Virus record (IMG/VR): IMGVR_UViG_2582581022_000009
Strand: one strand, 5' to 3'
Length of the DNA stretch: 15,216 bases
Source: a virus
Taxonomy: Duplodnaviria > Heunggongvirae > Uroviricota > Caudoviricetes
Within the stretch, counting starts at the first letter, position 1, and every line of letters starts with the position of its first letter. Positions 7,558-8,244 of the stretch are shown here, piece by piece. The position numbers and the translations under genes are program-made. The notes beneath the pieces were generated by a model that worked only from the letters and a program-made list of their open reading frames with translations, was not told the DNA's origin and ran no database searches.

Positions 7558-8244
7558 TCACTCCTTCTCTTCTTTTCCGTAGTGGAGTTGGCCAATTTTG
7601 ATAAGAGGGCGTCCCTGAGATTTGCGGTGTAGATTGGTATCGCGCAGAGAATACACACAGCCACAATATTCCTGCTGATAGAATTTTTCGCGCTTGCTGA
7701 TTTCAATCATACGGGACGAGCCGCCCTGCTTGCGCCAGTTATAATCCCAGTACACCATACCCGGATAATGCGCAACAGCTCGCCGCCCACACTCGTTAAC
7801 CTGCTGCATATTTTTCCAGCGTGAAATGCCCAGTGAACTGCTGATCACACTGAAACCATTTTCAGCAGCGTACAACGCTGTCCGCTCAAAACGCATGTCA
7901 AAACACATGGTACAACGGATCCCCCTCTCAGGCTCCCATTCCATTCCTTTGGCACGTTCAAACCAGTTGTCGGTGTCGTAATCAGCATCGATAAACGGCA
8001 CGCCGTGTTGTTCAGCAAAGCGAATATTTTCATCCTTACGAATTAAATACTCTTTCTGAGGATGAATGTTCGGGTTGTAGAAAAAGATGGTGTAGTCGAT
8101 TCCCGAGGCCTGAAGCGCCTCCATCACTTCACCGGAACATGGAGCACAGCAAGAGTGCAGTAGTAGTTTGTTTGCCCCGTTTGGGAGCTCCAATTTAGGC
8201 CGTTTGAAATCAGCAATAGTCATAAATATTTTTATTGGGGTCAT
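7558..8244 (-). CDS. DUF208 / QueH-like (epoxyqueuosine reductase family) Fe-S protein
   Basis: 228 aa with [11 protein letters not shown] near the N-terminus, FYNPNIHP, and further Cys (RCTMC, CGC), which I recognise as DUF208/QueH signatures; needs profile confirmation. Start codon ambiguous (8244 or 8223). Confidence 0.55.

Follow-up and report, generated by a model that had tools for sequence, protein, structure and literature searches.

The last step of queuosine (Q) formation, the conversion of epoxyqueuosine (oQ) to Q on tRNA, can be carried out by either of two non-orthologous enzymes. QueG, encoded by the gene yjeS, is a cobalamin-dependent oQ reductase that also needs two [4Fe-4S] clusters (PMC4646009), whereas QueH, unrelated to QueG in sequence and fold, performs this step without cobalamin (PMC5372724; PMC6461909; PMC13443448). 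Escherichia coli makes oQ-tRNA (PMC7026641; PMC4646009) and, in M9 medium free of vitamin B12 (B12), accumulates oQ in place of Q (PMC7026641). QueG and QueH are found in one genome in Staphylococcus aureus, Streptococcus pyogenes and Streptococcus suis, a co-occurrence that has been read as an adaptation to differing cofactor supply (PMC13443448; PMC12632869), and in S. aureus the two show different expression profiles (PMC13443448). Phages use 7-deazaguanine chemistry in DNA, and a survey of 7-deazaguanine genes in viruses reported no QueA, QueG or QueH homologs among the viruses analysed (PMC6884629). Here we describe a queH gene in a 15,216-nucleotide stretch of caudoviral DNA (IMG/VR record IMGVR_UViG_2582581022_000009), the whole of which we refer to as the window. 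An initial annotation, made from the letters of the window, had proposed a QueH/DUF208-like enzyme encoded at 7558-8244 inside a prophage early operon. We found that this gene belongs to a queH lineage widespread in E. coli prophages, and we consider it likely that it is a functional, captured QueH that gives host tRNA a B12-independent route from oQ to Q.

The locus shares features with each of these systems and departs from them in others. The encoded protein has the same predicted reaction as QueG, oQ-tRNA to Q-tRNA, and no E. coli genome with queH lacks queG; however, queG is core in E. coli, while queH is accessory and phage-borne. As in S. aureus, S. pyogenes and S. suis, QueG and QueH meet in one genome, but the second enzyme of E. 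coli is carried by a temperate phage, whereas phage carriage is not stated in the two reports on those species (PMC13443448; PMC12632869). Phage DpdA clusters (FolE, QueD, QueE, QueC) are likewise phage-borne genes from the queuosine and archaeosine pathways, yet these clusters serve to synthesise preQ0-type bases and to incorporate them into DNA, while the window has the last, tRNA-specific step alone.

The open reading frame (ORF) at 7558..8244 on the minus strand is intact and, as mechanically called to the ATG at 8244, codes for 228 amino acids. In a profile search the protein matched Pfam PF02677 (QueH, formerly DUF208) over profile positions 1-174 of 175 with 221.5 bits (E=1.1e-65), where the curated cut-off of the family is 23.5 bits. 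Sequence comparison by itself also recovered Thermotoga maritima QueH from the PDB (7lc5 with E=8e-22; 7lc5, 9dco and 9d86 at about 1e-21). Together with the alignment and fold described below, these matches bear out the DUF208/QueH assignment of the initial annotation, and both motifs quoted there are present in the ORF: an 11-residue motif at amino acids 27-37 (8134-8166) and FYNPNIHP at amino acids 55-62 (8059-8082). The protein is already named "epoxyqueuosine reductase QueH" in RefSeq; as we found no NCBIfam model match for it, this name must stem from another rule. An earlier suggestion that links DUF208 to Holliday-junction resolution (PMC3403352) is older than the QueH assignment and was rejected.

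Furthermore, the catalytic residues of the family are retained. A homolog search across 1.84 billion cluster representatives yielded 4774 related clusters, from which 40 diverse members of full length, sharing 33-86% identity with the window protein, were aligned with T. maritima QueH and the window protein (n = 42). This alignment contains 14 invariant columns (C32, C33, N59, Y66, R69, E106, R110, C111, C114, K144, Q191, C194, G195 and C196 in window numbering), and the window protein keeps the family residue in all of them. All seven metal-site positions are kept as well (C32, C33, C36, C111, C114, C194 and C196, in the patterns CCxP(C/D), CxxC and CxC). The T. maritima residues C9, C10, C87, C90, C169 and C171 align with C32, C33, C111, C114, C194 and C196, respectively, while T. 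maritima D13 aligns with C36, a position that is Cys in 41 of the 42 sequences, which makes the T. maritima Asp the exception. On the minus strand of the window, C32, C33 and C36 fall in the 11-residue motif at 8134..8166, C111-x-x-C114 (within RCTMC) is encoded at 7903..7914 and C194-G-C196 (within YCGCVYS) at 7657..7665, the latter two pairs being invariant in 42 of 42 sequences. The metal-ligand assignments used here for QueH are taken from secondary sources and PDB titles. The PDB entries of T. maritima QueH include the mutants C9S and D13N as well as a complex with queuosine, and a 2021 structure paper reportedly describes the site as a [4Fe-4S] cluster that has one single iron next to it.

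The predicted fold agrees with the alignment. An AlphaFold2 model of the window QueH, built on the alignment, has a mean predicted local distance difference test (pLDDT) score of 93.9 and a predicted template-modelling score (pTM) of 0.89. When this predicted model was compared with the PDB using Foldseek, five T. maritima QueH entries ranked first, with target-normalised template-modelling (TM) scores of 0.90-0.92 and root-mean-square deviations (rmsd) of 1.2-2.0 Å; the top hits were 9d86 and 7lc5, and superposition on T. maritima QueH gave a TM score of 0.92 with an rmsd of 1.2 Å over 179 columns. The five entries were followed by enzymes of the adenine-nucleotide alpha-hydrolase fold (TtuA, TilS and others) with target-normalised TM scores of about 0.2-0.6; the match ranked directly after QueH reached only 0.37. 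All metal-site cysteines are thus present in a model with the QueH fold, and the loss of these ligands, which the initial annotation had named, together with failure to complement queG, as grounds for dropping its assignment, is not what we observed. The window protein resembles T. maritima QueH (7lc5/7lc7/9deu) in fold, in its six cysteines and in N59, Y66, R69, E106, R110, K144 and Q191; it differs in overall identity (about 31-33%), in having Cys36 where T. maritima has D13, and in a C-terminal extension of about 25 Lys/Arg-rich residues that is common to enterobacterial relatives. The T. maritima gene is chromosomal, whereas the window gene is phage-carried.

Several lines of evidence suggest that the true start codon lies downstream of the mechanically called one. 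The initial annotation was right about the existence of the ORF, but its start at 8244 probably does not hold: judging from sequence comparison, translation probably begins at Met8 (ATG at 8223), giving a protein of 221 amino acids and a coding sequence of 7558..8223 on the minus strand. This follows from an in-frame TAA that closes the frame upstream of Met8 in a divergent allele (locus L004), from the length of RefSeq protein WP_000150294.1 (221 amino acids), from the N-termini of chromosomal homologs, which line up with Met8 in the alignment, and from the model, in which residues 1-8 are the sole low-confidence stretch (pLDDT below 50) and confidence is high from residue 9. The leader before Met8 is A/T-rich and contains no Shine-Dalgarno sequence.

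Next we examined how common the gene is. Across 5426 complete E. coli genomes, queH DNA is present in 995 (about 18%), including O157:H7 and ST131 strains; in 985 of these 995 the match spans 80% of the gene or more, and in 707 its identity reaches at least 99%. Nearly all of the matched places are chromosomal (1014 of 1017), in 741 genomes queH is contiguous with the hok gene of the window, and among the matches listed all 30 are annotated as QueH. A query with queG from K-12 was found in every one of the 5426 genomes at 95% identity or more, in agreement with the premise of the initial annotation that E. coli normally uses QueG, and consequently queH is always a second enzyme, an addition and not a replacement. 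A QueH-like gene on a phage had been called unexpected; given its prevalence and the existing RefSeq name, it is less so than was thought. In IMG/VR, 190 viral contigs carry a relative, and among the matches listed 80 of 80 are 100% identical to the window protein. The isolated siphovirus HannyBb is the only credible queH carrier among deposited phage genomes; most of the other tblastn hits labelled as phage come either from metagenomic fragments lacking annotation or from records too large to be plausible phages and probably bacterial, and these were not counted. The carriers examined, in line with the survey of prophages that the initial annotation had proposed, include Qin-like prophages (L003 and L005), a Rac-like prophage (L004), the prophages of E. 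coli 118UI (L001) and 23CRST038 (L012), and phage HannyBb.

The gene has been under purifying selection. Pairwise Nei-Gojobori comparison of five prophage alleles gave ratios of nonsynonymous to synonymous divergence (dN/dS) of 0.03-0.06 at dS values of 0.10-0.45. By the same method, the flanking phage genes gave higher ratios (0.06-0.13 for DUF977 and 0.10-0.22 for DUF968). This low dN/dS indicates that the QueH protein has been kept functional while resident in phages.

Outside the prophages of E. coli and E. albertii, the nearest relatives of the protein are found in Scandinavium (92% identity), Kluyvera (91%) and Enterobacter (88-90%), followed by Erwinia (85-86%) and Providencia (83-84%). 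These chromosomal Enterobacterales proteins are near-identical to the window protein in length and sequence, including the C-terminal tail, and mark the likely donor lineage, but their genes stand in a non-phage context whereas the window gene stands in a lambdoid early operon: we found no match to the prophage proteins of the window in the queH loci of these five genera. In Enterobacter and Scandinavium the neighbours of queH are metabolic genes, with a DeoR regulator, GH28 and a methyltransferase in the former and SDR, SnoaL and MBL in the latter. The core-genome order in Erwinia is purL-glmY-queH-glrK (L009, an Erwinia-like metagenome contig, 5631-6666), and in Providencia the core-genome queH adjoins tmcA. 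In E. coli K-12 the purL-glmY-glrK core region is not known to contain queH. The straightforward reading of these comparisons is that a housekeeping Enterobacteriaceae queH would have been captured by a lambdoid phage.

Two observations on the wider family were made in passing. The E. coli prophage QueH is 75-81% identical to proteins of Pseudomonas, Stenotrophomonas, Sphingomonas and Neisseriaceae (loci L040-L093), and on these sequences the clade is unusually conserved across distant Proteobacteria. Matches of 77-86% in records titled Bacillus subtilis and Avacidaminococcus suggest contamination or recent transfer.

Within phage genomes, the gene occupies a defined position. The queH slot lies in the early-right operon of Qin/Rac-type lambdoid prophages, between the replication module and hok/sok. 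E. coli 118UI and 23CRST038 show the same gene order as the window at 99-100% identity, and in both an intact antiterminator Q gene follows RusA. Divergent alleles (92-98% DNA identity) occupy the same slot in the same orientation in the Qin-like prophages L003 and L005 and in the Rac-like prophage L004, and HannyBb carries a divergent allele in the same slot and on the same strand. Between these backgrounds, similarity extends from 45-120 nt before the start to about 10 nt past the stop. Such boundaries indicate that queH behaves as a compact cassette, and they resemble those of a moron, a lysogenic-conversion cassette expressed autonomously from its own promoter and closed by its own terminator. 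The location inside the early operon proposed by the initial annotation holds for the usual family position; in the window, however, an insertion sequence (IS) at 8295-9630 separates queH from the upstream genes. Its place next to hok was confirmed. A hok/sok type I toxin-antitoxin module (7165..7525, minus strand; supported by Pfam, Rfam and promoter and terminator scans) lies directly downstream, with a mok/hok ORF at 7165-7377 (Pfam HOK_GEF, E=3e-23), a sok region at 7315-7490 (Rfam sok, 120.5 bits), a promoter-like site at 7525 to 7497 and a terminator-like hairpin at 7079-7096.

On these results, we propose that the phage protein acts as a cobalamin-independent iron-sulfur reductase that would convert oQ to Q at position 34 of tRNA-Asp, -Asn, -His and -Tyr. 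Taken from an Enterobacteriaceae chromosome by a lambdoid phage, the gene would now move as a compact cassette in an accessory slot that extends from the replication module to hok and antiterminator Q. Its orientation matches that of the early-right operon, with which it is most likely co-transcribed, the simplest inference being transcription after induction or infection, so that a lysogen or an infected cell would gain B12-independent completion of Q beside QueG. Because QueG needs B12 and de novo B12 synthesis is impossible for E. coli, the phage QueH would complete Q whatever the B12 supply. The window contains no host genes; the substrate would be provided by tgt and queA of the host. More tentatively, and with rather less confidence than in the enzyme itself, the purpose for which temperate lambdoid phages carry QueH might be a B12-independent switch of the wobble base from oQ to Q in the four host tRNAs with a GUN anticodon, either as lysogenic conversion or as a lytic aid. 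As lysogenic conversion, queH would be a trait for B12-poor niches or for btuB-deficient hosts; as a lytic aid, it would serve translation or counter a nuclease during growth. If this were the case, QueH would be the first example of a queuosine-tRNA maturation enzyme encoded by a phage, and its placement in a defence/accessory hotspot would not be accidental.

A number of observations weigh against a working enzyme that benefits its host. The support is computational throughout and the QueH activity is predicted from sequence and model. We know of no E. coli phenotype by which oQ-tRNA and Q-tRNA can be told apart. The use of NAU and NAC codons does not differ between phage late genes and a host sample and is uninformative (0.57 for HannyBb late genes, 0.58 for window early genes and 0.53 for a small K-12 sample). 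A leader at 8224..8272 (minus strand) is conserved in all prophage alleles, as seen in an alignment of five alleles with the window, and ends in CTCTGATGCTACAC (8259-8272), about 40 nt before Met8, which on its sequence could be read as an extended -10 element (TGcTACACT). A consensus promoter scan called no sigma-70 promoter before queH, this element included, and the terminator scan found no intrinsic terminator after it, the next signals belonging to hok (its promoter and the terminator downstream of it); the counts of the promoter and terminator scan are at or below the shuffled-control expectation. As the gene has no promoter or terminator called for itself, its expression in a repressed lysogen is unproven and the benefit to the lysogen may not exist. 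Searches of ten queH loci (prophage loci and seven chromosomal ones) revealed neither a cobalamin nor a preQ1 riboswitch nearby, and thus queH lacks the kind of regulation that usually marks B12-independent back-up isozymes. Finally, since an IS lies between queH and the operon promoter in the window and the prophage is truncated, the present expression of this copy is uncertain, and it may currently be silent.

Part of this evidence would also be compatible with queH being a neutral passenger, acquired by illegitimate recombination, riding with successful prophages and useless beside QueG. The universality of queG favours such a passenger, as do the scans, which call neither promoter, terminator nor riboswitch for queH, and the IS just upstream of it in a decayed prophage; the near-identity of most copies fits a recent clonal spread of few prophages. 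We nevertheless regard this explanation as unlikely, because alleles at dS of up to 0.45 differ almost only synonymously, with a dN/dS below that of the neighbouring genes, because nearly all matches cover most of the gene and those listed are annotated as QueH, and because its place is kept in Qin-like and Rac-like backbones and in an isolated phage. Still less credible, and very improbable in our view, is a truncated or dead gene whose functional unit starts at Met41 and lacks the CCAPC metal-binding motif. This idea derives from PHROG 3217 (phrog_3217), which covers only amino acids 41-228 and is labelled "unknown function", and from several database clusters that begin at Met41. In the window, though, the frame is open through CCAPC back to Met8 or Met1, all five alleles keep amino acids 9-40 under the same purifying selection, and both the 221-residue RefSeq call and the model, confident from residue 9, include this region. 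Because the PHROG profile begins at residue 41, many phage annotations place the first codon at Met41 and leave out the CCAPC metal motif.

Recruitment of the enzyme to phage conflict, whether for 7-deazaguanine bases in DNA or for a change of the wobble base that would escape or attract an anticodon nuclease, has the neighbourhood of the gene in its favour: hok/sok and the anti-phage genes RmrT and RmrA follow queH in the window, a KwaB-like gene shares its slot in L005, and a role against anticodon nucleases fits a position in a defence/accessory hotspot. The use of 7-deazaguanine chemistry in phage DNA (PMC6884629) provides a chemical precedent. With the window protein 88-92% identical to housekeeping orthologs and its invariant residues unchanged, there is however no sign of neofunctionalisation, and queH itself has no PADLOC match. 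Genes of the tgt, dpdA and queC-E type, that is, for a DpdA/TGT transglycosylase or for preQ0 synthesis, were found neither among the Pfam-scanned ORFs of the window nor in the annotation of L001 nor in that of HannyBb bases 1-40530 of 45272. This agrees with the remark of the initial annotation that the usual dpd/que partner genes are absent from the window, and the alternative offered there, a 7-deazaguanine-related function, finds no support as a function in DNA. We know of no epoxide-bearing DNA base. Collectively, these points make a conflict role quite improbable, less so than the Met41 start but more so than a neutral passenger, and leave the B12-independent maturation of host tRNA as the reading we prefer.

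What is already public is the QueH family, its reaction and the name on this exact protein, while the carrier seems new: no discussion of a phage- or prophage-borne QueH was found in the literature searched, and the role of queH in phage and lysogen biology appears unstudied. Queuosine status influences how NAU and NAC codons are decoded, and links to stress, biofilm and virulence phenotypes have been described (PMC10570037; PMC9508795). Should the B12-independent prophage reductase be a working enzyme in the roughly 18% of E. coli strains that carry it, tRNA modification would differ between strains in a way that is not controlled for. It would also follow that temperate phages transfer an enzyme of tRNA maturation, and natural isogenic pairs would allow a direct test of the physiological difference between oQ and Q. 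The virus survey had left the impression that phages have no late-pathway genes specific to Q (PMC6884629), and this too would be corrected. The PHROGs entry of the family, with its truncated profile, still reads as of unknown function.

The IS upstream of queH in the window is an IS3-family element of 1336 bp (8295..9630, plus strand, opposite to queH) with TG...CA ends, 28-nt imperfect terminal inverted repeats and two genes, orfA (Pfam HTH_Tnp_1) and orfB (Pfam rve). Measured from the ATG at 8244 it sits 50 bp upstream, and measured from Met8 71 bp; the collinearity of the window with the uninterrupted L001 breaks at 8294/9631; L012 likewise lacks this IS. A 15-bp exact direct duplication, ATCGGGAATATATGT, flanks the element (8280..8294 and 9631-9645) and is present as a single copy in the uninterrupted locus. 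Target duplications of IS3-family elements are usually 3-5 bp, so 15 bp is much longer. OrfA resembles that of IS2. No ALIL pseudoknot was found in the window IS, whereas one is present in the IS3-family copies of L001 and L012.

Collinearity with intact prophages also ends at window position 3105, where the early region is fused near 3104/3105 to a cassette of a Pin-like invertase and tail-fibre genes. Of a Q-like antiterminator only the first 27 residues remain (ORF 2988-3182, minus strand, PHROG 304). This end of collinearity and the truncation of Q to 27 residues indicate that the lysis and morphogenesis genes are missing. None of the complete E. coli genomes covers 80% or more of the whole window, and the prophage in it is a remnant. 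The queH sequence itself is identical to the commonest allele.

Apart from the IS, the early region of the window follows the order seen in L001 and L012. A divergent CI-like repressor (13352..13813, plus strand, Pfam HTH_3) is found where L001 annotates a helix-turn-helix (HTH) protein, and is followed on the minus strand by YdaS-like Cro (12969..13250), YdaT (12560..12985), DnaT-like O (11448..12494), P (10994..11659), DUF1627 (10190..10978) and DUF977 (9749..10189), all assigned with Pfam. The mechanical ORFs of P and DnaT-like O overlap by 212 nt; as P is only 462 nt long in the RefSeq annotation of L001, where this region is identical, the long P ORF is probably over-extended upstream. 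Beyond hok and the anti-phage genes, still on the minus strand, are two small ORFs (4934-5155 and 4602-4886), DUF968 (3551-4600) and RusA (3179-3538), the last of which we treat as ordinary content of the lambdoid nin region.

Directly after hok, two overlapping genes (5265-6999, minus strand) match the Rosmer anti-phage pair: RmrT at 6349-6999 (PADLOC E=4.6e-25; "hypothetical" in RefSeq) and RmrA at 5265-6371, with an HTH and an M78/IrrE peptidase domain (PADLOC E=6e-105; "helix-turn-helix domain-containing" in RefSeq). In the Qin-like prophage of E. coli W2-5 (L005 5153-6792), two genes, one KwaB-like (Kiwa) and one hypothetical, lie between queH and hokD, which indicates that the slot is a variable defence/accessory hotspot.

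At the other end of the window, positions 60-3027 resemble a Pin/Gin-type invertible tail-fibre segment. A serine invertase (Pfam Resolvase and HTH_7) lies within the ORF at 2329-3027, three alternative tail-fibre C-termini with Pfam Collar domains at 60-779 (plus), 790-1251 (plus) and 1872-2402 (minus) share near-identical N-terminal stretches, and a tail-fibre assembly gene is present at 1258-1872.

Lastly, among the chromosomal loci, a match to the RyhB small RNA (74 bits) was found in Enterobacter sp. ECC-175 (L018 6478-6541), about 800 nt downstream of queH. RyhB is the iron-sparing small RNA, and QueH belongs to the iron-sulfur enzymes; that they lie close together in this locus may be due to chance.

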